This document shows positions 39,817 through 53,865 of a stretch of DNA of 64,000 bases, piece by piece. Each line of letters begins with the position of its first letter. The stretch's first letter is position 1. Source of the DNA: an uncultured Planctomycetia bacterium. GTDB taxonomy: Bacteria; Omnitrophota; Gorgyraeia; JACOVV01. The notes under the pieces are model-generated. The model was given only the letters and a program-made list of their open reading frames with translations, had not been told where the DNA came from and did not search any database. The stretch lies in assembly GCA_964372345.1 (NCBI GenBank), contig CAYJQR010000001.1:36825-100824 (forward strand), given 5' to 3'. A program made the position numbers and the translations under genes.

Positions 39817-40950
39817 ATGTACTCCAGATTAATTGCCCCCCCAAAGGGGAAGAGCTTCTTTCTATTCGGGCCGCGGGGGACTGGAAAAACAACGTGGGTT
39901 AAAGCGGTCTTTCCTAACGCCCTCTATCTTGATCTTCTAGAAGCGGAACTTTTTAATGACCTTTTGGCTAATCCACAACGGCTGGAGAACTTAATCCCCC
40001 AATCGTTCAGCGACTGGATTATCATTGATGAAGTGCAAAAGGTCCCTGAGCTCCTAAATGAAGTCCACCGGTTGATCGAAAAATATAAATATCAGTTCAT
40101 CTTGACTGGTTCCAGCGCTAGGAAATTAAAGAAAAAGGGGCCAAACTTATTGGCAGGCCGCGCGTTAACCTACTCGATGCATCCTCTGACAGCGATGGAA
40201 CTGGGGCGAGATTTTAACTTAGATCACTCTCTAAAATATGGACAACTTCCCTGTGTCTATAGCGAGGCAAACCCCAAAGGTTATCTGGAGAGTTATGTAA
40301 AGACTTACCTAGAGCAAGAAATCCAGCAGGAAGGACTCACAAGAAACTTGGGGGCTTTTTCGCGTTTTTTAGAATCGGCTAGTTTCTCACAGGCGGCCGT
40401 ACTCAATATTTCAGCGGTAGCGCGTGAGTGCGCTATCGAGAGAAAAGTAGTTGAGAATTATTTCACTATCTTAGAGGATTTATTAATTGCGTATCGAATT
40501 CCTGTTTTTACAAAAAAAGCTAAAAGGCGATTGGTCACCCACTCAAAGTTTTATTTTTTTGATGTTGGGGTTTATCGTGTTTTAAGACCGATGGGACCTT
40601 TGGATATGCCTGAATCCGCCGAAGGGGCGGCATTGGAGGGGCTTTTGTTTCAGGAATTGAATGCGATCAATGCCTATTTTGATCTGGGCTACAAGATCTA
40701 TTTCTGGAGGACCTCCAATCAAGTGGAGGTTGATTTTGTGTTGTATGGGAATAAGGGATTGAGAGCGTTTGAGGTGAAACGGACCCGGAAAATCTCAAAC
40801 TCTATGCTAAAAGGACTCAAGGCGTTTTTAGAAAACTATCCACTAGCTAAAGCCTATTTCCTTTATGGTGGAGAACGCCGTATGCGGGAAGGGAAAATTG
40901 AGATTATTCCAATGGATTCCGCGCTCAAAAATTTACCCTCACTTCTCTAG
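39817..40950 (+). CDS. AAA+ ATPase with a C-terminal DUF4143-like domain.
   Basis: Walker A FLFGPRGTGKTT and Walker B IIIDEVQK. The 377 aa architecture is typical of the ATPase (AAA+ superfamily)/DUF4143 family common in defense islands. Confidence 0.75.
   Translation: MYSRLIAPPKGKSFFLFGPRGTGKTTWVKAVFPNALYLDLLEAELFNDLLANPQRLENLIPQSFSDWIIIDEVQKVPELLNEVHRLIEKYKYQFILTGSSARKLKKKGPNLLAGRALTYSMHPLTAMELGRDFNLDHSLKYGQLPCVYSEANPKGYLESYVKTYLEQEIQQEGLTRNLGAFSRFLESASFSQAAVLNISAVARECAIERKVVENYFTILEDLLIAYRIPVFTKKAKRRLVTHSKFYFFDVGVYRVLRPMGPLDMPESAEGAALEGLLFQELNAINAYFDLGYKIYFWRTSNQVEVDFVLYGNKGLRAFEVKRTRKISNSMLKGLKAFLENYPLAKAYFLYGGERRMREGKIEIIPMDSALKNLPSLL
40833..40950. repeat. 118-bp direct repeat, copy 1. 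This is the 3' end of the ATPase gene.
   Basis: About 97% identical to 42527-42654. Confidence 0.9.
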
Positions 40951-40974
40951 TCTAAAAACTGAAGGAACCGTGGA

Positions 40975-42276
40975 ATGTCTGGGGCGTGGGCAAATAAAAA
41001 ATTCGCCGAAGATATCCAGTCAGTAAACCAAGACCTGAAAAATTTGAACCATGATAAACCCTTGAGGAAAGGTCTTGAAGGGAGTGATATGGCGCAAGAT
41101 TCTATAAAATGTCCTAAATGCGGGGAGGCAATCCCTCTTTCTGAGGCGTTGTCGCAGGATATTGAAGAACGCGCCCGCCGGAAATACGAGGCGCAATTAT
41201 CTGAAAAAGAAACCGAATACCAAGCTCTGCTGAGAAAACAGCGCGAAGAACTTGCGATAAAACTTAAAAAACAGGCAGAAGAAGCTGTCAGCGCTGAAAT
41301 GACCGATCTGAAAGAGCAAGCGGAAGAGACGAAACGCAAGCTGAAACAAGCCAATGAGAATGAGTTGGCGTTGCGCAAAAAACAGCGCGAATTGGAAGAG
41401 AGGGAAAAAACGCTTGAGTTGGAAACCGCCAGAAAGATAGACGAAGAACGGCGAAAGATCGAGACGGATGTTTTCACGCGACTTGAAGAACAGCATAAGC
41501 TGAAAGACGCGGAAAAAGATAAGAAACTTTCGGATGCCTTCAAGCAGGTTGAAGAATTAAAGCGAAAGATGGAGCAAGGTTCCCAGCAGATGCAGGGAGA
41601 AGTGCTTGAATTGGAACTAGAAGAATTATTTAAGCGAGAGTTTCCTTTTGATGTCATCGAACCAGTTTCCAAAGGGGTGCGGGGCGCTGATATTGTCCAA
41701 ACTGTCAAAACGCAATCCGGGCGCACGTGCGGGAAAATCCTCTGGGAAACAAAGAGAGTAAAAAACTGGAGCGACTCCTGGGTTCAAAAGTTGAAAGACG
41801 ATCAGCAAGACGCGAAAGCGGATATTGCAGTCCTCGTTTCCGAGGCGCTTCCCGCGGGGTTTCATCACTTTCGGCAGATTCACAGTGTGTGGGTAACGGA
41901 TATTCCATCGGCCGTTAGCCTGGCTTTAGCCCTGAGAGTGGTGTTGATTCAAGTGGCCAGTGCCAAGGAAATGGAGAGTGGCAAAGATGATAAAAAGGAT
42001 CTCATTTATCGTTATATAACTGGTACTGACTTCCGTAATCGGGTCACTGCGATCATCGAAGGATTTCGGACAATGAAAGAAGACCTTGAAGCGGAGAAGC
42101 GAGCCATGCAGAGGATTTGGGGAAACCGGGAAAAGCAGATCGAAAGGATCATTTTCAACACGGCCGGGATGTACGGGGATTTAGAGGGGTTGGCTGGGGC
42201 GGCCTTGCCGCAGATTAAGATTCTGGAGTTGCCAGTAGGGGAAAATATAGAAAAGAAGACAAGGGAGACAGAGTAA
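40975..42276 (+). CDS. DUF2130-like protein: an N-terminal zinc ribbon, a long coiled coil and a C-terminal PD-(D/E)xK-like motif.
   Basis: CPKCGE zinc ribbon, an EK-rich coiled coil and GADIVQTV...GKILWETKR (a D...E-x-K pattern). The start may be the ATG at 41089. Confidence 0.55.
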   Translation: MSGAWANKKFAEDIQSVNQDLKNLNHDKPLRKGLEGSDMAQDSIKCPKCGEAIPLSEALSQDIEERARRKYEAQLSEKETEYQALLRKQREELAIKLKKQAEEAVSAEMTDLKEQAEETKRKLKQANENELALRKKQRELEEREKTLELETARKIDEERRKIETDVFTRLEEQHKLKDAEKDKKLSDAFKQVEELKRKMEQGSQQMQGEVLELELEELFKREFPFDVIEPVSKGVRGADIVQTVKTQSGRTCGKILWETKRVKNWSDSWVQKLKDDQQDAKADIAVLVSEALPAGFHHFRQIHSVWVTDIPSAVSLALALRVVLIQVASAKEMESGKDDKKDLIYRYITGTDFRNRVTAIIEGFRTMKEDLEAEKRAMQRIWGNREKQIERIIFNTAGMYGDLEGLAGAALPQIKILELPVGENIEKKTRETE

Positions 42277-42432
42277 ATGCTGAAGCGAATAAAAAGGAAA
42301 AGCTCAAGCTCATGGGGAAAATAAAAGGAGGCATTTCCTCGGGACGGAACCCTTTGGATAGCCCCCCATCGTGATTCTACTATGAGTATAGCATACGAAT
42401 AACAATATCGTTGAAGATTGTTTTGAAGGTAT

Positions 42433-42654
42433 TTGTTCCTCTCCCCACCTGCCTACCCGATAAAACCTTCTGGCAAACTCCATGGGTTTGGGGGTAAAAT
42501 GAGGGGAAAAGAGAACCGGTCTCATTTCCTATTAGAAAACTATCCACTGGCTAAAGCCTATTTCCTTTACGGTGGAGAACGCCGTATGCGGGAAGGGAAA
42601 ATTGAGATTATTCCAATGGATTCCGCGCTTAAAAATTTACCTTCACTTCTCTAG
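42433..42654 (+). pseudogene. 3'-terminal remnant of a DUF4143 ATPase gene. This is the second copy of the direct repeat.
   Basis: The last 37 codons (YPLAKAYFLYGGERRMREGKIEIIPMDSALKNLPSLL) are identical to the C-terminus of the 39817-40950 gene. There is no upstream ATPase body. Confidence 0.7.
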
Positions 42655-42674
42655 GGCCTATGAGGTAACAACGA

Positions 42675-45056
42675 ATGTCAAACGAAGCAGACACTTGCAG
42701 GCGATATGTTTTACCCAAGCTCTATGCGGCTGGTTGGACAGACGATCAGATATCAGAGCAAAAATATTTTACGGATGGCCGAATAATAATAATTGGTAGC
42801 GCCTGCAAGCGAAGAAAACAAAAAAGAGCAGATTATCTTCTGCGGTATCGCCGCGACTTCCCCATAGCTATTATCGAGACCAAAGCAGATTATAAAAGCG
42901 CCGGCGACGGCATGCAGCAAGCAAAAGAGTATGCGGAAATTCTTGGGTTGAAGTTCGCGTATTCGACCAACGGAGAGAGGTTTATAGAACATGATTACAC
43001 AACTGGGATTGAGCGCGAACTTTTGGAATTGCCGTCGCCGGATGATCTGTGGCAAAGATATAGAAAGTCAGAGAGCATAACGGAAGAAACCGTTGCCGGC
43101 AAGCTTTTAACTCCGTATTATTACAATCCCGATAAAGAACCTCGTTATTATCAGCAGATAGCGATCAATAGAACCGTACAATATGTTTTAAAGGGGAAAA
43201 GACGTATTTTGATCACCCTGGCGACAGGAACAGGCAAAACAGAAGTGGCTTTTCAAATTGCCTGGAAATTGTGGAACGCGAAATGGAACAAGACGGACGA
43301 TGGAAGAAAACCAAGAATCTTATTTTTGTCAGATCGGTCTATCCTGGTTGACGATCCCAAGGATAAAACATTTATTCCGTTTGGAGACGCGCGCCATAAA
43401 ATTGACGGGGAAGCGATAAAAAGCAGGGAAGTGTATTTTTCGCTATATCAATCCATCGCTAAGGACGAAAGGCGACCGGGGCTGTATAGAGAATATTCCC
43501 CTGATTTCTTCGATCTTATCATTATTGATGAGTGCCATCGCGGGAGCGCTGCCGACGAAAGTAACTGGAGGGAGATCTTAGAATATTTTGAACCCGCGTA
43601 TCAAATCGGCATGACCGCAACTCCATTAAGGGAAGACAACAAGGACACCTATAAGTACTTTGGCAATCCAATTTATACTTACACGTTAAAACAAGGAATA
43701 GACGACGGTTTTCTCGCGCCTTACAAAGTGCACCGCGTTGTTACGGAAGTGGACGCGACCGGGTGGAGGCCCGAACAAGAACAAAAGGACCGGTATGGCA
43801 GAGAGATTCCCGATGGTGAATACAGCACAAAAGATTTTGGCCGTATTTTAGCCTTACGGCCGAGAACCGAAGCGGTTGCTCAGCATTTAACAGATTTCCT
43901 CAAAAAAAAGGACCGATTCGCCAAAACTATAGTGTTCTGTGAAGACCAGGAAGAGGCCGAAGAAATGCGCAGGATATTAAACAACCTGAATTCCGACTTA
44001 GCGCAACAATATCCTGATTTTGTAGTGAGGATTGTCTCGGAAGAAGGGTCTGTTGGACGCGGCCATTTGAGTAAATTTCAGGAGTTGGAGACATTAACCC
44101 CAGTCATTGTCACGACAAGCAAGTTATTAACGACGGGTGTTGATATTCAAATGTGCAAGAATATCGTCCTGTATAAAGTCATAAACTCGATGACTGATTT
44201 TAAGCAGATTATCGGCCGTGGAACACGAGTACGCAGCGATTACGGCAAGCTCTATTTTAACATTATTGATTATACTGGCAGCGCGACGCGCCTGTTCGCA
44301 GACCCCTCTTTTGACGGCGAACCCGCACTCTTGACACAGGAAGAAATCGACACGCTCGGTAAAGTAAAAGAAGGGAGCCAAGTGATTCTAGCTCCTGAAG
44401 AAGCCAAAGAATATAAAAAGGCCGATGAAGAAGTAACAATAGACGATCTCGTTGTCTGTGACCTCCCCGATGGACAGCGCGAAAGAAGAAAATTCTACGT
44501 GGATGACGGTAAGAGGATCAAAATTATTTACGATTATGAACAGCATTTAGACGCCAACGGCAATAAACTGCGAGTCGTAAAATACACAGAGTATACGGCT
44601 GAAAAAGTGCGTTCAATGTTCACTTCCGCGGCGGCGCTTCTTTCAAAATGGCAAGTGGCCGAAGAGCGAACGGCAATTATCGAGTTCCTACAAGATAAAG
44701 GGATTACTTTTGAAGAACTTGTCAAAGCGACAGACCAAGAAGACGCGGATCATTTCGATCTTCTCTGCCATGTAGCTTTTAATGCCCCTTTGCGCTCGCG
44801 CAGGGAGCGGGCTGAACGTTTAAGAAAAGGGAAAGTGGATTTCTTTGAATACTTTTCTCCAGAGGCCCGGCAGATCCTAAATGAAATACTGGATAAATAT
44901 GTCGAGTTCGGTACAGAACAGTTTAAAGTCCCGGATATTCTTAAAGTAGATCCAATTGCCCGCCACGGAAACGTTATTGAAATTGCATCTTTGTTTAGCG
45001 GGCCGGAAAAGCTCAGAGAGGTCTTTGAAAAGCTTCAAACACTTTTGTATAGCTAG
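42675..45056 (+). CDS. hsdR: Type I restriction enzyme R subunit.
   Basis: The N-terminal Mrr-like nuclease region (CRRYVLPKLYAAGW, IIETKADY), SF2 helicase motif I (LATGTGKT) and the DEAD-box motif IIIDECHRGS. Confidence 0.85.
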   Translation: MSNEADTCRRYVLPKLYAAGWTDDQISEQKYFTDGRIIIIGSACKRRKQKRADYLLRYRRDFPIAIIETKADYKSAGDGMQQAKEYAEILGLKFAYSTNGERFIEHDYTTGIERELLELPSPDDLWQRYRKSESITEETVAGKLLTPYYYNPDKEPRYYQQIAINRTVQYVLKGKRRILITLATGTGKTEVAFQIAWKLWNAKWNKTDDGRKPRILFLSDRSILVDDPKDKTFIPFGDARHKIDGEAIKSREVYFSLYQSIAKDERRPGLYREYSPDFFDLIIIDECHRGSAADESNWREILEYFEPAYQIGMTATPLREDNKDTYKYFGNPIYTYTLKQGIDDGFLAPYKVHRVVTEVDATGWRPEQEQKDRYGREIPDGEYSTKDFGRILALRPRTEAVAQHLTDFLKKKDRFAKTIVFCEDQEEAEEMRRILNNLNSDLAQQYPDFVVRIVSEEGSVGRGHLSKFQELETLTPVIVTTSKLLTTGVDIQMCKNIVLYKVINSMTDFKQIIGRGTRVRSDYGKLYFNIIDYTGSATRLFADPSFDGEPALLTQEEIDTLGKVKEGSQVILAPEEAKEYKKADEEVTIDDLVVCDLPDGQRERRKFYVDDGKRIKIIYDYEQHLDANGNKLRVVKYTEYTAEKVRSMFTSAAALLSKWQVAEERTAIIEFLQDKGITFEELVKATDQEDADHFDLLCHVAFNAPLRSRRERAERLRKGKVDFFEYFSPEARQILNEILDKYVEFGTEQFKVPDILKVDPIARHGNVIEIASLFSGPEKLREVFEKLQTLLYS

Positions 45057-45089
45057 AGCATAATTGTTACATTTTATGTAATAATTATG

Positions 45090-45118
45090 TTGACAAACAG
45101 CTTCTTATATGGCATATT
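45090..45118 (+). promoter_or_regulatory. Candidate promoter for abiEi-abiEii.
   Basis: TTGACA (45090-45095), a 17-nt spacer and CATATT. It overlaps the palindromic operator. Confidence 0.4.
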
Positions 45119-45147
45119 TGTTACAGAGAACGTAACAAATATGCCAT
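45109..45147. promoter_or_regulatory. Perfect 16-bp inverted-repeat operator overlapping the abiEi start codon.
   Basis: ATGGCATATTTGTTAC agagaac GTAACAAATATGCCAT. The right arm ends in the ATG at 45146. Confidence 0.7.
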
Positions 45148-45760
45148 GAGTACTCTATACGATAGAAGACAAAATCTTTATAACGTTGCCTCAACCCAAC
45201 AGGGGTATTTCTCTGCCAAGCAAGCCCTTTCTTGCGGTTATTCCCACCGTCTCCAGCATTATCATAAGGAAAAGGGCCAATGGGTTGAAATAGAGCGGGG
45301 TTTCTTCCGCCTTTCCAATTTCCCATCCTCGCCCAATGAGGATCTTGCTCGTTGGTCCTTTTGGAGCCGTAATCGTGAAGATATTCCTCAAGCTGTTGTT
45401 TCTCACGAATCGGCCCTTGCTATTCATGAACTCAGCGATGTGATTCCTTCAAAAGTTCACCTTACGATTCCACCCTTTTTCCGTAAGAAAAGCGCCGGAG
45501 GGTGCGTCCTTCATAAAAATATCCTCCTCCCGGAGGTTATAGAAAAACGAGAGGGGTTCTTTGTGACAACTCCTATGCAAACAATTATTGATGTGGCTGA
45601 TAGCGCTCTTAGCCTTGAACAGCTTGAACAAGCAGTTCGGGACGCTCTGGCCAAGGGGCTTATGGTCCCGGCCAATATCGCAAAAGCAAAGATGTCAGCC
45701 GCCGCTCGTGAAAAGATAGGTCTGATTATGGAGAACATTAAAAGAAAGCCGGTTTTATGA
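45146..45760 (+). CDS. abiEi: AbiEi-type antitoxin / transcriptional regulator (type IV TA system).
   Basis: A 204 aa product with an N-terminal winged-helix region. It is translationally coupled to the downstream nucleotidyltransferase and sits behind a palindromic operator. Confidence 0.65.
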   Translation: MSTLYDRRQNLYNVASTQQGYFSAKQALSCGYSHRLQHYHKEKGQWVEIERGFFRLSNFPSSPNEDLARWSFWSRNREDIPQAVVSHESALAIHELSDVIPSKVHLTIPPFFRKKSAGGCVLHKNILLPEVIEKREGFFVTTPMQTIIDVADSALSLEQLEQAVRDALAKGLMVPANIAKAKMSAAAREKIGLIMENIKRKPVL

Positions 45761-46632
45761 AAAACGAGAGAACGTATATGTCCGCTGCTTCTTTTCGCCA
45801 AGCCCTTGAAGAGCGCCTGCACAATATTTCCAAGGAACAGAAAGTTCCATTGGAAAGGTTGCGTAAGCGCATTGCGTTTGATCGTCTTCTGGCCCGATTG
45901 TTCGATAGAAAAGCGCATCCCGATCCTCAATGGTTGCTTAAAGGAGGTTATGCTTTAGAAATTAGGTATCTCAATATTGCCCGGGCGACTAAAGATATTG
46001 ATATGGCTATTCCCAGCATGGTCGGGCCTTCTCCTGGAACAGTAAGAGGTATTTTACAAAGGTCGGCTGAGATAAATCTCGGAGATTGGTTTGCGTTTCT
46101 TATAGGAGAACATTCTCAAGAATTAAGCCAGGCAGTTTACGGCGGTTGGCGCTATCCGGTAGAGGCGAGGTTGGCAAATAGAGAATTCACAAAATTTCAT
46201 GTTGACGTTGCCATCGGAGACGTCGTCGTTTCAGAGGCCGAGTGGTTCAAAAGCACAGAGTTATTAAGTTTCGCGGGGATTCCTCCCGCAGAGGTGGCGC
46301 TTTTCCCGAGGGATCAACAGTTCGCTGAGAAAGTTCATAGTTATACTTTCCCGCGAGACCCAAAAGAGATGTCGCGGGTTAAAGACCTTGTTGATATGGT
46401 TTTGTTGATTGAGAACGGCATGCCAAGTTCTGCGCATGTAGTAAAAGCGGTTAAGGCAACGTTTAAAAGAAGAAAAACGCATACTGTGCCTGACGCGCTC
46501 GTTTCTCCACCTGCTTCATGGGAAGCAAGTTATCGGGAAATGGCGTTAGACTGCGGAGTAAAATGCAAGACCGTTGAAGAAGCGTTTAAGTCAGTTTCTT
46601 CCTATTGGGGAAATTTATTTAAGAAGGAGTAA
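45757..46632 (+). CDS. abiEii: AbiEii/AbiGii-family nucleotidyltransferase toxin (DUF1814).
   Basis: A 291 aa product with a nucleotidyltransferase-fold GG...D.D region (LLKGGYALEIRY...TKDIDMAI). The ATGA overlap with abiEi is typical. Confidence 0.7.
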   Translation: MKNERTYMSAASFRQALEERLHNISKEQKVPLERLRKRIAFDRLLARLFDRKAHPDPQWLLKGGYALEIRYLNIARATKDIDMAIPSMVGPSPGTVRGILQRSAEINLGDWFAFLIGEHSQELSQAVYGGWRYPVEARLANREFTKFHVDVAIGDVVVSEAEWFKSTELLSFAGIPPAEVALFPRDQQFAEKVHSYTFPRDPKEMSRVKDLVDMVLLIENGMPSSAHVVKAVKATFKRRKTHTVPDALVSPPASWEASYREMALDCGVKCKTVEEAFKSVSSYWGNLFKKE

Positions 46633-46635
46633 ATA

Positions 46636-48210
46636 ATGATGACCAAAAAATCAAAAATTAAAATACCGCAAACAACGTCGGCGCAATTGAGTTCTATTAT
46701 AAAATCATGCCGCGATATCATGCGTAAAGATAAAGGATTAAACGGCGACGCGGATCGCCTTCCTATGCTTACCTGGATTATGTTCCTAAAGTTCCTCGAT
46801 GATATGGAAATGATGCGGGAAACCGAAAGCAAAATGGAAGGTAAAAAATATGTTCCGGCAGTTCACGCGCCTTATCGCTGGCGTGATTGGGCATCCAAAG
46901 AAGACGGCATTACCGGAGAAGAGCTGATTTCCTTCATCAATCATCAGGAATGCGTGCGGCCGGATGGCAGTCGCGGGCCGGGTCTGTTCACCTATTTACG
47001 GGCGCTTGAAGGCACCGGTCAAAAAAGAGATCGCCGTAACGTTGTTTCAACGGTTTTCCGCGGCACAGCAAACCGGATGCTTAATGGCTACCTTCTGCGG
47101 GATGTCATCAATAAGATCAATCAGATTCATTTTACCTCAACGGAAGAAATTCATACTCTATCCCATCTTTACGAAAGTCTTCTTAAAGAAATGCGGGACG
47201 CATCCGGAGACGCAGGCGAGTTCTATACTCCACGGGCAGTGGTCAAGTTGATGGTAGCGGTGGTCAATCCTCGGCTTGGCGAAACTGTGTTGGACCCGGC
47301 GTGCGGAACAGGCGGATTCCTTGTTGAGTCATTTGAGCATATCAAAAAACAGTGTAAAACAATTGCGGATCATAAAAAACTTCAAGAGGAGACGATCTTC
47401 GGAGGAGAGGCAAAGTCTTTACCGTATTTACTGTGTCAGATGAGTCTCCTTCTGCACGGGCTTGACTCTCCGAATATCGATCCGGGAAATTCCCTGCGGG
47501 TTCCCTTAAAAGAAATCGGTGATAAAGACCGCGTAGAGGTGATTCTGACCAATCCTCCTTTCGGAGGCGAGGAAGAAAAAGGCATTCAAGGTAATTTCCC
47601 TCAAGATAAACAGACGGCGGAAACCGCGCAACTTTTCTTACAACTGATTATGCGTAAATTGAAACGTCCCGGGCAGGGAAATAAAGGAGGCGGCCGCGCG
47701 GGCGTGATTGTTCCCAACGGCACGCTTTTTGGCGACGGCGTCTGCGCGCGGATAAAAGAAGAATTACTCAAGGAATTCAATCTTCATACGATCGTACGGC
47801 TGCCGAACGGTGTTTTCTCGCCATACACTTCCATACCGACGAATATACTCTTTTTTGACCGCGCCGGGCCGACAAAAGAAATCTGGTTTTATGAACATTT
47901 GCTTCCGGAGGGAAGAAAAAACTACACGAAAACAAAACCGATACAATTTGAAGAATTCCAATCATGCCTGGAATGGTGGGAGAAACGGGAAGAGAACGAA
48001 CGTGCCTGGAAGATCAAAGTCGAAGATGTTTTAAGATATGCCCAAGATGGTAATCTTATTTCAACCAACCTGGATATCAAAAACCCCAATACAGAGGACG
48101 CTTTTGAACATATGCCGCCGGAGAAGCTGATAGAGGATATTTTGGAGAAAGAAGAAAAAATTATGGTAATTTTGAGAGAAGTCAGTCAAATTCTAAAGGA
48201 AAAAATATGA
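46636..48210 (+). CDS. hsdM: Type I restriction-modification N6-adenine DNA methyltransferase subunit.
   Basis: An N-terminal HsdM_N helical domain, an AdoMet motif (DPACGTGGFLV) and the catalytic NPPFG. Confidence 0.9.
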   Translation: MMTKKSKIKIPQTTSAQLSSIIKSCRDIMRKDKGLNGDADRLPMLTWIMFLKFLDDMEMMRETESKMEGKKYVPAVHAPYRWRDWASKEDGITGEELISFINHQECVRPDGSRGPGLFTYLRALEGTGQKRDRRNVVSTVFRGTANRMLNGYLLRDVINKINQIHFTSTEEIHTLSHLYESLLKEMRDASGDAGEFYTPRAVVKLMVAVVNPRLGETVLDPACGTGGFLVESFEHIKKQCKTIADHKKLQEETIFGGEAKSLPYLLCQMSLLLHGLDSPNIDPGNSLRVPLKEIGDKDRVEVILTNPPFGGEEEKGIQGNFPQDKQTAETAQLFLQLIMRKLKRPGQGNKGGGRAGVIVPNGTLFGDGVCARIKEELLKEFNLHTIVRLPNGVFSPYTSIPTNILFFDRAGPTKEIWFYEHLLPEGRKNYTKTKPIQFEEFQSCLEWWEKREENERAWKIKVEDVLRYAQDGNLISTNLDIKNPNTEDAFEHMPPEKLIEDILEKEEKIMVILREVSQILKEKI

Positions 48211-49406
48211 AAAAGTGGGATAGATATAGCTTGGGAGAATTAATAACCTTAGAAAGAAGGCCTGTAGATGTTGAATTGGATAAAAGATATCAAGAAATCG
48301 GTATTTATTGTTTTGGTAGAGGAGTTTTTCATAAGCAACCGCGTACAGGATATGAAATAGGAAACAAAGCTCTCTTTTTAGTAAAAGAGAGAGATCTTAT
48401 ATTCCAAATAACATTTGCATGGGAGGGAGCCATTGCACTAATGAGTGATTCGGAAAATTGGATGTATGCGTCTACGCGTTTCCCGACTTTTCGTGCTAAT
48501 GAAAGAAAGTGCGATCCTAAATTTTTACTTTACTATTTCCGTACCCAGGAAGGGAGAGATCAGCTAGTAAAAATATCCCCTGGCTCAGCAGGAAGAAACA
48601 GAGTTCTAAGTCTCAAAAGAATGCCAGAGGTATTTATTCCACTCCCATCGCTTCCCGAGCAACACCGTCTCGTAGAATGTATCGAGGCAATCGTAGGTAA
48701 AATTGACGAGGCGAAAAGATTACGAGAAGAAGCACAGAAAGCAATAGATGCATTAATAGATGCGAAGCTACGGGGCCTAATTAATGAAAGCAACAAAAGA
48801 TACGAATGGGATTTCGGTCCTATTTCTAAATACGCAGAAGTCAATCCTTCTAGGCAAGGTCAGATCAAGTTGGCTGATAAAGATGTGGTCTCTTTTGTTC
48901 CTATGTCCGCTGTTGATGACATTACAGGTACCATCAAAGAGCGATTTATTAAACCCTACTATGAAGTTTCAAGAGGATATACATGGTTTAGAGAGGGGGA
49001 TGTTATATTCGCTAGAATTACGCCATGCATGGAGAATGGGAAATCGGCAGTTGCTGTTAATTTAGAAAACGGCCATGGATTTGGTTCCACCGAATTCCAT
49101 GTGTTAAGACCGGGGACTAAAATCTTAGCTGACTGGTTACATTTATTAATTCGCAGTAAAGATTTCAGAAGGGATGCGGAATCTTATTTCAAAGGGACAG
49201 CAGGTCAACAAAGGATCCCTCAAAGTTTTCTTGAAAAAAAAGAAATCCCCGCTCCACCGATACCAAAACAGAGGGAGTTAATAAATTATTTTAAGAAATT
49301 TACTGTGTGTCTTGCTGAAGAACACAAGATTGATGAAGAACGTCACGCCGAATTGAACGCTTTATTCCCTTCCGTATTAGACAAAGCCTTTAAAGGTGAG
49401 ACATGA
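48207..49406 (+). CDS. hsdS: Type I restriction-modification specificity subunit.
   Basis: A 399 aa product with two target-recognition domains separated by the conserved central helix (LPSLPEQHRLVECIEAIVGKIDEAKRL) and a C-terminal conserved helix. It is AT-rich, as is usual for hsdS. Confidence 0.8.
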   Translation: MKKWDRYSLGELITLERRPVDVELDKRYQEIGIYCFGRGVFHKQPRTGYEIGNKALFLVKERDLIFQITFAWEGAIALMSDSENWMYASTRFPTFRANERKCDPKFLLYYFRTQEGRDQLVKISPGSAGRNRVLSLKRMPEVFIPLPSLPEQHRLVECIEAIVGKIDEAKRLREEAQKAIDALIDAKLRGLINESNKRYEWDFGPISKYAEVNPSRQGQIKLADKDVVSFVPMSAVDDITGTIKERFIKPYYEVSRGYTWFREGDVIFARITPCMENGKSAVAVNLENGHGFGSTEFHVLRPGTKILADWLHLLIRSKDFRRDAESYFKGTAGQQRIPQSFLEKKEIPAPPIPKQRELINYFKKFTVCLAEEHKIDEERHAELNALFPSVLDKAFKGET

Positions 49407-52400
49407 TCCCTGTCTTTTTTTGCCATATCTGTGATGAGAAAGATAATTGTAGATTTGCGATTAGAATAGCTGAGAAGTTGCGAAAAGATATCACGGGAGT
49501 AGAACCATTTATTGCTTGCCAGGATGATAATTGGAACAATGCCAAAGAATTAAATACGGCATTAAATCACTGCTATCTTTTTATCGCAATAGTAAGCTCG
49601 GGGTTTCTGCAAAAGAATAATTGTGTTTCTGAATTGGAACAGGCAAGAGAAAGGAACCAAAAAAATGGGAAATTTCCTATTATTTTCCCGATACAATATC
49701 AATGCGACTCAAAAGTCATGGCCGATCTAGAGTTTTCTATAGATCAAGGTAAACAGACGGGAGAGAGATGGGTTGATTTCTCTAATGATAGCGAATATGA
49801 CGTCAAGTATGAAGAATTTTATAAAAGAATATATTCTACAATTCTTGATAGCAATCTGATAACCAACGAGGATTTTCACAAGGATTGTAAAGTTCTCGAT
49901 GTTGTTTTAAGAGAAGATGAGCCAACCTCGGGTTTCGTAAAGACAGCGATAGATTATTGCCGAAGGGGTGAAGAATATGGTTTTTATTTTTTTAAAAATC
50001 TTTCGAATCCAAAATGGCTAAGCCATTTATATGCGGCGGGATTTTTTAACAATAATCCCTCTCCTGTAGAATCTGAGAAAAATGCCGGCTACTATAATAT
50101 CAATATCCCTTTTTGGACGGTATTACCTTATCTAGAGAAAGTAGCAGAAAATCTTCGGGGTAGACCGACTTTTGTAATAATTGATATTATACGTAAGGTT
50201 ACAAGGCCGGTTGCTCCAGTAAAAAAACAAGACAACTATCACACCTGGTATTCCTTCATCAAGATCATGGCGAACCTGCCGCCTGATGTTATTCAATTGG
50301 AGGACATTGATCTCGTCGCTGACTGGCTGGAGAGTAGATTTGATGTTTCTCTTGTGATGCACGAAGTCGGCAGGACATTTTTGCCGAAACTGCTTTCCAC
50401 GCAAGGAGAAGACTTGCGGAAAGTTACGCGTCTTATCGAAATTGTTATAAATTCGATTAAGGTTGAAAAAAGACATAGCGTCGAAGTCCGTGGGCTTCAA
50501 GAGATGTTTGAACTGAATGCTTCACAATTGGGCGAGAAATGCGGCAAGGAGATTGTGGAAGTTCTTAAAAGGAAAATAGAGACAGTGATCGCCGCGGAAG
50601 ACGATACATACAGCTATATATGGCGGCCCGCTATTGAGGACCATGAGCAGAATGTTGGCGACGGCGAATACCGGCACATCTTGATTGCGGGCTTGCGGGA
50701 TGTGCTTTTAGGATTCGCCTCTAAACAAGATGCTTCAGGGATGATCCAGACGTTTTTCCAATCAGAAAAATACATTATCAGACGTATCGGATTATATGTT
50801 TTAGATAAGCTGTTTGAAAAGTTTAGGTATAAAGAATTGGCCGAACAGGCCATTCAAGATGAGATGAGAGAACTATTACTCAAGAGCAATTATCACCACG
50901 AATGGTATCTGTTTATAAAAACTCACTTTAATACTCTTTCAAAGGAGGTTCAAAAGAAGCTTATCGAGTATATCAGCACCCTAAAGGGAGATTGGCGGGA
51001 TGCCGCGGATAAGGAGAGATTTAATATAGAGCTTCGGCGCCAGTGGTTTGGCGCGATTCAATCCTCCGGATATCAACTGCCTGCCGAAATAAAACAACGA
51101 TATCGTGAAGGGATTAATGCTGAATCCGAACACCCAGAGTTTTTAGGTTATATGGGCCCTGTTTCGTGGGGGGATGAAAATGTCTTTTCCGTGAGTGAAT
51201 TATTGGCTCAAGGAAGCGCCGAAAACATTATTTCATTTCTTAATGGCTATCGGGGGAAGAACCGGTTTGGTAAACCGGCTATCCGTGAATCAGGGCAGTC
51301 TTTGAAAGCGGCCGTTAAGGCAAAACAGGATTTTTTTGAAGGAAATCTTGATAAATTTAAAGAGGTAAAATGGGAGTATTGGTACTACCTGTTGGACGCT
51401 TTTGAAGAGCTATGGGATGATAAAAAACAGATTGACTGGAATAAAGTACTAGCGTTTTGTTCGTCAATAGTCCATCAGGATTTCTTGTACCAAGAAGAGG
51501 AAAAGAAAGATAACCACCCGCTTTACCCTAAGGAAAGTTGGGTCATTTCTGTCATCGCAGACCTGATTAAGAAAGGGGTTCAGAATGATGAACGGACGAT
51601 GCCGGATGATTGTTTAGATAATGCCGAACAGATTATCAGGATCATGCTAGGGAAACAGAAAGCAGAGGCAACCGGGAAAGAAGATAGCGCTTTGAACGAA
51701 GCGATGAACACAACCAAAGGGCGCGTCTTAACGTGTTTCATCAGTTATGCCTTGCGGCGGTACAGAACTTATGAAAGGCTGCCTGAGAAAGGCATTAAAG
51801 AAAAGGAATCGTTCTGGGGAAAAATAGAACCTCTCTTCGACGAGGAGATCAAAAAAACAAAAGAAGGAAATTTTGAGTTTTCAAGCATTGCGGGGGCGTA
51901 TCTTCCCAACCTTTTTTATTTGAATAACGATTGGGCCGAGAGAAATATCAATCATATATTTTCACAAGAGGAAAAGCACTGGCGCTGCGCTATGGCGGGA
52001 TATGCGTATGTCAGTACTGTCTATTCAGTTATTTATGGCTTGTTGAAGAAGAACGGCAACCTTAAACGCGCTCTTGATACGGAATTTACCAATGACAATG
52101 TAAAAGAGCGGATCGTCGAAAATATCGCGGTCTCCTACTTAAGGGGGCAGGAGTCTTTAGACGGCGAAGGGAGTTTATTTAAGTACCTGCTTGAGAAATG
52201 GCAGGTAAAAAACATTGAAGATACTATTGATCTTTTTTGGGCTCATCGGGATGTCGAGTTAAATCGTGAACAGAGAGATCGAATATATGGCTTTTTGCGG
52301 TATTGTTTTAACCGCGTCAAAGGGCATGAAGAGGAAAACAAAGGGATCCTTTCCGATTTAAACCTGTTGGCCGTATTCTTGTGCGAAATCAACAATGAGC

Positions 52401-52702
52401 AAAAAGATTGGCTCATGCAATCTGTTCAACATGTAGAGGAACGCTATCACAGTTCATTCTTTCTGGAATACTTGGATAAATTAGCCGCTATTAACCCGAG
52501 AGAGGCGGGCGAAGTTTTCCTTGAAATGTTGAATAAAACTGTACCCCCATACAAGGAAGAAAATGTAACATCAATCGTTGAAAAAATCTACAAAGCCGGA
52601 TTCAAAGAGATAGCTAATCTAATCTGCGATAAATATAAGCGAAATGGGCATGACTTCTTAGATGACCTTTATAATCGGTATAATTCAGCTAACATTAAAT
52701 AG
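49403..52702 (+). CDS. Large (1099 aa) protein with an N-terminal TIR-like domain and a long helical repeat region of unknown function. Translationally coupled to hsdS.
   Basis: Residues 1-140 follow the TIR motif order: VFFCHICDEKD (betaA) ... VEPFIACQDD ... YLFIAIVSSGFLQKNNCVSELEQA ... KFPIIFPIQYQCDSKV. There is no P-loop or nuclease motif. GC content is about 40%. The ATGA start overlaps the hsdS stop. Confidence 0.55.
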   Translation: MIPVFFCHICDEKDNCRFAIRIAEKLRKDITGVEPFIACQDDNWNNAKELNTALNHCYLFIAIVSSGFLQKNNCVSELEQARERNQKNGKFPIIFPIQYQCDSKVMADLEFSIDQGKQTGERWVDFSNDSEYDVKYEEFYKRIYSTILDSNLITNEDFHKDCKVLDVVLREDEPTSGFVKTAIDYCRRGEEYGFYFFKNLSNPKWLSHLYAAGFFNNNPSPVESEKNAGYYNINIPFWTVLPYLEKVAENLRGRPTFVIIDIIRKVTRPVAPVKKQDNYHTWYSFIKIMANLPPDVIQLEDIDLVADWLESRFDVSLVMHEVGRTFLPKLLSTQGEDLRKVTRLIEIVINSIKVEKRHSVEVRGLQEMFELNASQLGEKCGKEIVEVLKRKIETVIAAEDDTYSYIWRPAIEDHEQNVGDGEYRHILIAGLRDVLLGFASKQDASGMIQTFFQSEKYIIRRIGLYVLDKLFEKFRYKELAEQAIQDEMRELLLKSNYHHEWYLFIKTHFNTLSKEVQKKLIEYISTLKGDWRDAADKERFNIELRRQWFGAIQSSGYQLPAEIKQRYREGINAESEHPEFLGYMGPVSWGDENVFSVSELLAQGSAENIISFLNGYRGKNRFGKPAIRESGQSLKAAVKAKQDFFEGNLDKFKEVKWEYWYYLLDAFEELWDDKKQIDWNKVLAFCSSIVHQDFLYQEEEKKDNHPLYPKESWVISVIADLIKKGVQNDERTMPDDCLDNAEQIIRIMLGKQKAEATGKEDSALNEAMNTTKGRVLTCFISYALRRYRTYERLPEKGIKEKESFWGKIEPLFDEEIKKTKEGNFEFSSIAGAYLPNLFYLNNDWAERNINHIFSQEEKHWRCAMAGYAYVSTVYSVIYGLLKKNGNLKRALDTEFTNDNVKERIVENIAVSYLRGQESLDGEGSLFKYLLEKWQVKNIEDTIDLFWAHRDVELNREQRDRIYGFLRYCFNRVKGHEEENKGILSDLNLLAVFLCEINNEQKDWLMQSVQHVEERYHSSFFLEYLDKLAAINPREAGEVFLEMLNKTVPPYKEENVTSIVEKIYKAGFKEIANLICDKYKRNGHDFLDDLYNRYNSANIK

Positions 52703-52756
52703 ACCACCGGACGTAGTTCGCAGGGGACACTATTTAAAAAAACTGAGGATTTTGGG

Positions 52757-53089
52757 ATGATCCCACCACCTCTTTGGGCTGGCGCCGTTGGAGAAATAAA
52801 ATTGCACTATGTATATTTACTTCGCAGTGTAGAGAGCGGACAACTCTATCTTGGTTGGACGACAGATCTCCAACGGCGCCTGAACGAACATAACAATGGG
52901 GATTCACTAGCGACTCGTAATAGAGGTCCTTATGAATTGATTTATTTTGAGGCATATCGGTTCAGAGAAGAAGCCGTGGCGAGGGAACAGTCGCTTAAAA
53001 AACATCCCAATGTGATAAAGCAATTAAAGGCACGATTATATCGGAGTCTCGCCACGGCTTCTTCTGTCCCCAAAGAGGTGGTGGGATGA
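52757..53089 (+). CDS. GIY-YIG nuclease superfamily small protein.
   Basis: HYVYLLRSVESGQLYLGWTTDLQRRLNEHN is the GIY-YIG signature. An alternative TTG start lies at 52802. The gene is bracketed by inverted ATCCCACCACCT motifs. Confidence 0.75.
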   Translation: MIPPPLWAGAVGEIKLHYVYLLRSVESGQLYLGWTTDLQRRLNEHNNGDSLATRNRGPYELIYFEAYRFREEAVAREQSLKKHPNVIKQLKARLYRSLATASSVPKEVVG

Positions 53090-53865
53090 TTGATACCCAC
53101 TGCCATCTTCATTTTTCCGAATACGACCAGGATCGTGAAACAGTCTTGCAAAGAAGCCGGGAGAGCGGAATTGACGCTTTGATTTTGGTGGGCTGTGATG
53201 CCGAAGATTCCACCCAGGCAATGAAGCTGTCCCAAAACTTCGATGGGGCTTTCTTTAGCGCCGGTTTTCATCCCCATGAAGCGAGCCGGTGGGATCTCCA
53301 CAAAAAGAAAAAACTGGAAGAACTCTCTCAAGAACCAAAGTGTGTCGCGATCGGAGAAGTTGGGTTAGATTATTACCGCAATCTCTCTTCAAAGGAAGAC
53401 CAGCAAAAAGTTTTTATCGAGATGTTAACCTTGGCTAAAACCAGAGAACTTCCGCTGATCATTCATTCCCGTCAAGCGGTGGAGGAGATGGTTTCGTTGT
53501 TAAAAGAACAGGGGCCTTTTCCATCGTCGGGAGTGATGCACTGTTTCTCGGGAGATTCAAAATACCTGCGGGACTGTTTAAAATTGGGATTTTACATTTC
53601 GTTCGCGGGAAATCTCACCTTTACCAATGCCCAAGAGTTGCGAGAGCGCGCGGCGGAAGTTCCGATGGAACGATTGCTGGCAGAAACGGATTCTCCTTAT
53701 CTGACGCCGGTCCCGTTTAGGGGGACCCGCAATGAACCTTGCCGTCTCACGCGCACGATCGCGAAACTGGCCGAGATCCAAAAGAAATCGCCGGAAGAAA
53801 TGGCAGAGGCGACCGCTGAAAACGCCCGGCGGCTTTTTAAATTGGATCCCAATGAAAAGCATTGA
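53086..53865 (+). CDS. tatD: TatD-family metal-dependent DNase/hydrolase.
   Basis: MIDTHCHLHF...; 259 aa with His/Glu/Asp metal ligands. Confidence 0.9.
   Translation: MIDTHCHLHFSEYDQDRETVLQRSRESGIDALILVGCDAEDSTQAMKLSQNFDGAFFSAGFHPHEASRWDLHKKKKLEELSQEPKCVAIGEVGLDYYRNLSSKEDQQKVFIEMLTLAKTRELPLIIHSRQAVEEMVSLLKEQGPFPSSGVMHCFSGDSKYLRDCLKLGFYISFAGNLTFTNAQELRERAAEVPMERLLAETDSPYLTPVPFRGTRNEPCRLTRTIAKLAEIQKKSPEEMAEATAENARRLFKLDPNEKH

Follow-up and report, generated by a model that had tools for sequence, protein, structure and literature searches.

The DNA analyzed here is a stretch of 64,000 nucleotides (hereafter the window, which means the whole of this 64-kb stretch) from contig CAYJQR010000001.1 of an uncultured Planctomycetia bacterium. 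On its forward strand, a gene for a protein of 1099 amino acids (aa), here designated TIR-DSR1, directly follows the genes of a type I restriction-modification (R-M) system that enclose an abiEi-abiEii pair. As judged from sequence and profile comparisons, the protein is a member of the DSR1 family in which the SIR2 NADase head is swapped for a TIR domain, and its gene reads as the translationally coupled last cistron of the R-M/AbiE block. The gene, its parts, and the genes of the block are the following:

49403..52702, + strand: TIR-DSR1 gene, 1099 aa (open reading frame [ORF], translation, Pfam TIR_2/TIR, PADLOC Dsr1, AlphaFold2)
49403..49831, + strand: TIR domain, aa 1 to ∼143; codon of the predicted catalytic E77 at 49631-49633, within N73-C74-x-x-E77
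49832..52702, + strand: linker and Dsr1-type sensor, aa 144-1099; all-helical solenoid (DSSP), PADLOC PDLC04166
49403..49406, + strand: ATGA overlap of hsdS stop and TIR-DSR1 start, read from the sequence; putative translational coupling
48207..49406, + strand: hsdS; two Pfam Methylase_S stretches (two target-recognition domains), PADLOC Specificity_I (E=4.6e-76)
46636..48210, + strand: hsdM, type I N6-adenine methyltransferase; Pfam N6_Mtase (E=7.5e-64) and HsdM_N, PADLOC MTase_I (E=8.9e-195)
45146..46632, + strand: abiEi-abiEii, type IV toxin-antitoxin/abortive-infection pair between hsdR and hsdM
45146-45760, + strand: abiEi; Pfam AbiEi_4, PADLOC AbiEi (E=6e-62)
45757-46632, + strand: abiEii; Pfam AbiEii, PADLOC AbiEii (E=1e-84)
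42675..45056, + strand: hsdR, EcoEI_R_C type; Pfam ResIII, EcoEI_R_C, and Helicase_C, PADLOC REase_I (E=1.6e-218 over 3-776)
45059..45147, + strand: putative internal promoter and two inverted repeats, ahead of abiEi-abiEii-hsdM-hsdS-TIR-DSR1

ORF and translation bear out the reading frame at 49403-52702 as delimited by an initial annotation of this DNA, and sequence, Pfam, and PADLOC agree with its placing of the gene last in the order hsdR-abiEi-abiEii-hsdM-hsdS, with an ATG that overlaps the hsdS stop. The TGA of hsdS (49404-49406) shares bases with the ATG of TIR-DSR1 at 49403, which is preceded by a Shine-Dalgarno-like AAGGTGA and is backed as the start codon by alignments of the homologs, which begin at an invariant M1. 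Overlaps of 4 nt are found at this junction, between abiEi and abiEii, and between hsdM and hsdS; the gaps amount to 3 nt before hsdM and 89 nt after hsdR. According to PADLOC, hsdR, hsdM, and hsdS are all present and full length. The whole block is probably co-transcribed, and TIR-DSR1, coupled to hsdS at the end of this type I R-M operon, would be made together with first-line restriction. The GC content of the ORF is 40.5%, close to the ∼40% given initially, but that of the flanks is 50–51% and not 56%; the 13-kb island comprising 39817-53089, bordered by the housekeeping genes tmk-holB-metG and tatD, has 43.5%. The 64-kb window contains no tRNA gene and, thus, no such marker of an integration site. 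Nearly every long ORF of the window lies on the + strand, and cumulative GC skew climbs steadily over the part of the window that was profiled.

Profile and structural evidence combined indicate that residues 1 to ∼143 are a genuine TIR domain. Pfam TIR_2 (35.2 bits; gathering threshold 28) and TIR (26.0 bits; gathering threshold 21.3) both matched above their thresholds, and no match to SIR2 or SIR2_2 of Pfam was obtained for the protein. A search of the PDB with the single protein sequence gave no matches; a profile built from 13 N-termini of the TIR form matched the TIR NADases of plant NLR proteins, namely L6 (2.8e-6), RPS4 (1.2e-5), RPP1, Roq1, and RUN1, as well as bacterial Cat1. In these alignments, E77 falls on the glutamate of "WCVRELEKI" in RPS4 and of "WCLMELAEI" in L6, that is, on the glutamate of the "WCxxEL" motif, which is the catalytic residue of plant TIR domains. 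N73, C74, and E77 are invariant in 18/18 full-length homologs of the TIR form, the tryptophan that usually precedes the cysteine of the motif being replaced here by the asparagine N73. AlphaFold2 modeled the full-length protein with a mean pLDDT of 84.3 and the TIR domain alone with a pLDDT of 83.9 and a pTM of 0.79. The fold of the domain is flavodoxin-like, and the top 50 Foldseek matches in the PDB are all TIR domains. The modeled elements comprise strands at 2-7 (VFFC), 33-37 (EPFIA), and 59-64 (LFIAIV), a helix at 72-88 (NNCVSELEQA...), and a strand at 93-98 (IIFPIQ), with E77 at the start of helix alphaC, where the catalytic glutamate is expected. The TIR-like N-terminus noticed initially, including the order of its conserved blocks, agrees with this secondary structure as it does with Pfam and Foldseek, and the proposed check for a TIR/flavodoxin-like fold returned a TIR fold from both AlphaFold2 and Foldseek. 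TIR-DSR1 is therefore predicted to act as an NADase through E77.

The remainder of the protein is, as was also proposed before, helical and devoid of P-loop, nuclease, and protease domains, as far as DSSP of the AlphaFold2 model (all-helical) and Pfam (none of these in the C-terminal region) can tell. A STAND NTPase module (NACHT/NB-ARC) was likewise not matched by Pfam or NCBIfam, the model consisting of a TIR domain and helical repeats only. Residues 180-1094 match positions 310-1225 of the 1227 positions of the PADLOC Dsr1 model PDLC04166 (E=6.8e-153, 509 bits), leaving profile positions 1-309 unmatched; the TIR-form homologs P0005 and P0013 match in the same way. Sister proteins of ∼1230 aa, which are fused to SIR2_2 and 45–46% identical over the sensor, show no alignment to the window protein ahead of residue ∼144. 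One of them (P0018) matches the profile from 5 to 1225, and the separate SIR2 gene of a locus in which effector and sensor are split (L009) matches positions 9-285. As the SIR2-fused sisters match the profile from end to end, the TIR domain appears to replace exactly the SIR2 segment of a DSR1. When the full model was searched against the PDB with Foldseek, only generic HEAT/ARM solenoids with TM≤0.3 were returned and no specific solved relative of the sensor. The designation "orphan" given initially had to be abandoned, for besides the match to PDLC04166, 92 homologs were found at E≤1e-5; the sensor family as a whole comprises 2774 clusters of 50% identity at E≤1e-3 and 809 at E≤1e-30, of which the TIR clade accounts for about a dozen. 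A scan of viral contigs found no relatives of TIR-DSR1 and, therefore, no sign of a phage-borne module.

With DSR1 (Gao et al, 2020; Garb et al, 2022; PADLOC PDLC04166), the window protein thus shares the C-terminal sensor of ∼915 residues along its full length and the layout of a single large polypeptide with an N-terminal NAD+-cleaving effector, an activity predicted in the case of TIR-DSR1. It differs in bearing TIR instead of SIR2, and in being part of an operon with type I R-M, whereas DSR1, a listed defense system still described as poorly characterized in 2026, has been presented as a stand-alone gene. Through Dsr1, the sensor belongs to the same superfamily as the TPR-type sensor of Avs7 (PMC12803255), with which it has in common the all-helical repeats and the interchangeable N-terminal effectors; TIR-DSR1 differs from Avs7 in lacking a STAND NTPase module. 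The architecture had been taken for an undescribed class, which cannot be upheld, the protein being one of the DSR1 family whose sensor is of the Avs7/Dsr1 type and whose effector has been swapped: effector swapping on the Dsr1 sensor has already been reported in general terms, and accessory defense genes in type I operons are well known. The main text of PMC12803255 mentions neither TIR fusions nor linkage to R-M.

How freely this sensor combines with effectors was apparent from a survey of 131 loci from genomes and metagenomes, seeded on the sensor. It occurs as a fusion with TIR or with SIR2, behind a separate SIR2_2 gene that overlaps it, combined with a small protein designated "cluster A" in split or fused form, or fused to other N-termini. 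The cluster A effector (220–275 aa) is the commonest partner in the survey (e.g., L016:9349-10011, L024:9285-9986, L037:6229-6972, and about 20 further loci) and has R53, W85, and H171 as invariant residues. Pfam gave only a sub-threshold match of it to pP_pnuc_1 (pPIWI-associated nuclease), and a profile search of the PDB gave none. On the sensor tree, the effector types are intermingled, which points to frequent exchange. One sensor scaffold alternately equipped with TIR, SIR2, or nuclease effectors is reminiscent of the short-pAgo systems SPARTA and SPARSA (TIR-APAZ vs SIR2-APAZ), and the TIR domain of SPARTA, an NADase activated by oligomerization as would be that of TIR-DSR1, is among the structural matches obtained here. 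The sensor of those systems, however, is a nucleic acid-guided Argonaute and not a helical-repeat protein, and outside the TIR domain there is no homology.

Whether the position behind hsdS is particular to the window or a property of the family was assessed on the survey loci after de-duplication at 80% identity, linkage being defined as a co-oriented hsdR, hsdM, or hsdS gene within 3 kb upstream of the effector and sensor module. Such a gene was present in 16/81 loci with enough upstream sequence, directly abutting the module in 11 of the 16, and downstream in 1/69 loci (Fisher p=4e-4 for the polarity). Of the TIR-fused clade, half was linked (5/10; p=0.022 vs the rest), and in most of the R-M-linked homologous loci, the junctions measure -4, -1, 0, or +1 nt. 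Among 371 neighboring proteins, HsdS recurred in 21/99 loci (20 upstream), HsdM in 9, HsdR in 4+3, and AbiEii in 3, no neighbor family other than hsd occurring in more than 3 of 99 loci. The density of hsdM was 3.47 per 100 kb in the 5 kb upstream and 0.31 in the other flanks (11-fold; Poisson P=2e-9). To account for the 14 linked tips of the sensor tree, parsimony calls for no fewer than 11 gains or losses, and linkage was seen with two unrelated hsdR families. Linkage of DSR1-family modules to type I R-M is, thus, recurrent, polar, and specific, and the idea of an association, for which homologs never linked to R-M had been named as the critical observation, survives. No description of a polar association of DSR1 with type I R-M was found in the literature searched. 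Still, 65/81 informative loci (∼80%) have no upstream hsd gene, which indicates that the sensor needs no Hsd protein.

Three further loci (L053, L054/L060, and L061) show the same order of six genes as found here. In L053, hsdR and hsdM are 74% and 81% identical to those of the window and TIR-DSR1 47%; the TIR-DSR1 proteins of L054/L060 and L061 are 43% and 42% identical. Loci with hsdR/hsdM of 71–81% identity, thus, hold TIR-DSR1 of 43–47% identity, and the closest relatives of the protein (54–56%) follow hsdR of an unrelated type I family (L004, L051, L058, and L059). Other TIR-DSR1 genes are found near a type III R-M system (L005), beside Fic (L006), or beside a STAND NTPase (L062). Two loci of the window's own R-M lineage carry other forms of the module after hsdS, namely a SIR2-fused DSR1 (L137) and a split SIR2 and sensor pair (L009). 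Within this EcoEI_R_C-type lineage (L053, L054/L060, L061, L137, and L009), the interval between hsdR and hsdM constitutes a second variable slot, filled by AbiEi/AbiEii, by RhuM (L137), or by an AAA_16 ATPase (L009). As a whole, the loci suggest a conserved type I chassis provided with cargo slots, to which DSR1-family modules have been attached repeatedly and independently.

Several further features of these loci are recorded here. A 180-aa ORF without Pfam or NCBIfam match lies between hsdS and TIR-DSR1 in L054 (7449-7991) and L060 (8016-8558), overlapping hsdS by 4 nt; RadC precedes hsdR in L054 and L137; and hsdR of L053 is split by a DDE transposase of an insertion sequence (IS). In two unrelated loci, a Fic/DOC gene is found just ahead of the DSR1-family module, which is TIR-fused in one case (L006:893-2023) and split-SIR2 in the other (L068:3-800); such a gene may be a second, rarer recurrent neighbor. 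Genes for AAA_14/DUF4143 ATPases occur near TIR-DSR1 in the window (39817-40950) and in a Planctomycetales locus (L003/L006, 8144-8809 and 15072-end). In the window, a 123-nt direct repeat is present in two copies that are 97% identical. The first (40828-40950) forms the 3′ terminus of the ATPase gene, stop codon included, and the second (42532-42654) is situated 20 nt ahead of the ATG of hsdR. Between them lies a DUF2130 gene (40975-42276), which for this reason has the appearance of a 1.7-kb cassette between the ATPase gene and hsdR, with its target duplicated. Behind TIR-DSR1, a gene for a GIY-YIG protein of 110 aa (52757-53089) is ATGA-coupled to tatD (53086-53865) and may, because of this coupling, lie beyond the border of the island, on its core side. 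In L005, a gene for a GIY-YIG protein of 112 aa is located directly upstream of TIR-DSR1. That GIY-YIG genes are homologous partners of TIR-DSR1 was considered and rejected because the two copies share no similarity (E≤1e-4) and that of the window is coupled to tatD.

The gap between hsdR and abiEi contains a promoter-like site (45090-45118; TTGACA-17-CATATT, with TG), flanked by inverted repeats at 45059-45089 and 45109-45147, one of which has perfect arms of 16 nt and one of which overlaps the start of abiEi. Similar ATAAT-TTACA/TGTAA-ATTAT repeats are present in the syntenic loci (L053:3658-3751, L054:3147-3181, and L061:4645-4677). Scans for promoter and terminator consensus sequences showed no enrichment over shuffled sequence (25 vs 22.2; 20 vs 14.5) and are of little help in delimiting transcripts; of the sites obtained, the one between hsdR and abiEi alone was kept, on account of the conserved inverted repeats on either side of it. 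These repeats are a candidate operator for AbiEi; if this is true, hsdM, hsdS, and TIR-DSR1 would fall under AbiEi control.

Taken together, TIR-DSR1 is probably a DSR1-family anti-phage protein that works as a single polypeptide, by direct sensing of a phage protein, oligomerization, and hydrolysis of NAD+ by the TIR domain via E77. In the resting state, the C-terminal alpha-solenoid of ∼950 aa, a sensor of the Dsr1/Avs7 type, would hold the TIR domain monomeric and inactive. Upon infection, it would directly bind a conserved phage protein, and the resulting conformational change and oligomerization would bring the TIR domains together, so that the assembled active site with its catalytic glutamate (E77) could hydrolyze NAD+ and starve the phage, possibly also the cell. 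Most likely, the protein would form a second line of defense, independent of restriction and directed against phages that evade it, and the recurrent attachment of such modules behind the last gene of type I R-M operons would most likely reflect selection for co-inheritance and co-regulation, without obligatory physical coupling; a conserved R-M chassis equipped with cargo slots would agree with this. NADase activity, trigger, oligomerization, co-transcription, and the layered function are, for TIR-DSR1 itself, inferred. DSR1 alone depletes NAD+ and protects Bacillus subtilis against phi29 (10.1101/2021.12.14.472415). According to a preprint (PMC12803255, bioRxiv January 2026), EcDsr1 is triggered directly and solely by the major capsid protein of ZL19, and the Dsr1 sensor, which is homologous to that of Avs7, occurs with NADase, nuclease, and kinase effectors.

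Several observations weigh against this account. The NCBIfam equivalog NF041818, built for Dsr1 of the E. coli type, scores the window protein with 36.6 bits against a cutoff of 1400, in a partial match (357-883); the SIR2-fused sisters are likewise low (41–79 bits). These scores make the subfamily only remotely related to the E. coli Dsr1 on which experiments were done, and a capsid trigger is consequently an extrapolation. The sensor also diverges fast, with 43–56% identity even within the TIR clade. Moreover, the linkage to R-M exceeds ordinary defense-island clustering, which hints at a functional tie beyond an autonomously acting protein. Finally, some TIR domains make signaling nucleotides instead of depleting NAD+. 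A protein that would work like DSR1 and has a sensor of that family, but has no SIR2 domain and falls below the NF041818 cutoff, is most suitably classed as a TIR-effector variant of DSR1.

The tie to R-M was given a specific form in the initial annotation, in which the protein acts as a PrrC-like guard: TIR-DSR1 would be held inactive by the Hsd proteins, or would monitor them, and fire when a phage deploys anti-restriction, comparable to PrrC-EcoprrI and RonA-HsdMS. The polar and recurrent linkage (16/81 upstream vs 1/69 downstream, and 5/10 in the TIR clade), its specificity (HsdS in 21/99 loci, the 11-fold upstream density of hsdM, the at least 11 gains or losses, and the two hsdR families), junctions that almost always measure -4 to +1 nt, and the TIR-fused, SIR2-fused, and split-SIR2 DSR1 found after hsdS within one R-M lineage all suit such a role, for which PrrC, PARIS, Ronin, and EcoR22I provide precedents. 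An abortive-type effector gene in or at a type I hsd locus, probably co-expressed with it, is indeed what TIR-DSR1 has in common with PrrC/EcoprrI and Ronin. PrrC, however, is almost exclusively embedded in R-M loci, whereas some 80% of the non-redundant DSR1-family loci have no nearby hsd gene, and the closest relatives of TIR-DSR1 include those beside Fic, a STAND NTPase, or type III R-M. The preceding gene varies (hsdS, hsdR, or hsdM), as do the R-M families, which argues against a single specific protein contact. Without Hsd to mask them, PrrC and RonA are toxic; characterized DSR1s, in contrast, are non-toxic alone, silent until infection, and triggered by the phage or its capsid protein in heterologous hosts that lack a cognate R-M system. 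Neither sequence nor domain similarity of TIR-DSR1 to PrrC, RloC, or RonA was found with Pfam and PADLOC, and the ABC-ATPase-like N-domain and anticodon nuclease of PrrC and RloC were not found in it with Pfam, PADLOC, or NCBIfam. With most relatives unlinked and characterized DSR1s acting alone, the role of a PrrC-like guard is not the preferred reading and is considered unlikely. A broader version, in which DSR1-family modules with any effector are functionally wired to type I R-M, either by sensing inhibited or stalled Hsd or by using HsdMS as a scaffold in the way Avs7 uses EF-Tu, is regarded as rather improbable. If true, a new and widespread class of restriction-guarding NADases would have been missed because DSR1 was studied only as an isolated gene.

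The opposite view would attribute the position to genome mechanics, the 3′ end of hsd operons being a recombination or insertion hot spot (a cargo slot), or else an addictive module by which any linked gene is stabilized, and the protein being autonomous and without synergy with restriction. The chassis of the EcoEI type with its two variable slots, between hsdR and hsdM and after hsdS with differing forms of DSR1, fits this view, as does the phylogenetic incongruence: the 54–56% identical relatives reside in another R-M family, and loci with 71–81% identical hsdR/hsdM carry proteins of only 43–47%. Signs of cassette traffic are the repeat around DUF2130 in the same island and the IS inside hsdR of L053, and unrelated defense genes are commonly embedded in type I R-M loci. 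A pure hot spot should, however, gather many kinds of cargo behind hsdS, a point to be read with the seeding of the survey on the sensor alone, and repeated independent gains suggest selection rather than chance; this explanation, too, is improbable. Embedding as such has been described for TgvAB of Vibrio cholerae VPI-2 and by "guilt-by-embedding" (Payne et al, 2024, a study in which DSR1 and SIR2 are not mentioned). Those accessory modules share the hsd operon as TIR-DSR1 does, and the AbiE genes of the window are such an embedded pair. TgvAB acts independently of HsdR, yet protects better within the full cluster. The embedded genes lie between hsd genes, whereas TIR-DSR1 is appended after the last one, so that screens for embedding would not flag it. 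The least probable alternative by far is a TIR domain that generates a signal in the manner of ThsB of Thoeris, a cyclic ADP-ribose-type nucleotide then activating a separate effector. The TIR domains of Thoeris and of plant NLR proteins do yield signaling nucleotides, but the operon and the island contain no gene for a ThsA-like, SLOG, Macro, SAVED, or other nucleotide receptor, and the PADLOC models of Thoeris (ThsA/ThsB) match neither TIR-DSR1 nor its neighbors. Furthermore, the sister proteins hold SIR2, a depleting NADase, or a putative nuclease-like effector in the same place, which implies the role of a terminal effector.

A directly sensing, NAD+-depleting TIR-DSR1, thus, remains the favored account. 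What the locus adds is a Dsr1 sensor with a TIR head in a clade of its own, and a module family that is repeatedly attached to type I R-M systems as the terminal, coupled cistron, often together with AbiE. If the linkage reflects co-inheritance only, the block would be a natural three-layer defense operon, in which restriction, a toxin-antitoxin abortive-infection pair, and an abortive-infection NADase that senses capsids are combined. If it is functional, the list of R-M guardians (PrrC, PARIS, and Ronin) would be extended to effectors that deplete NAD+.

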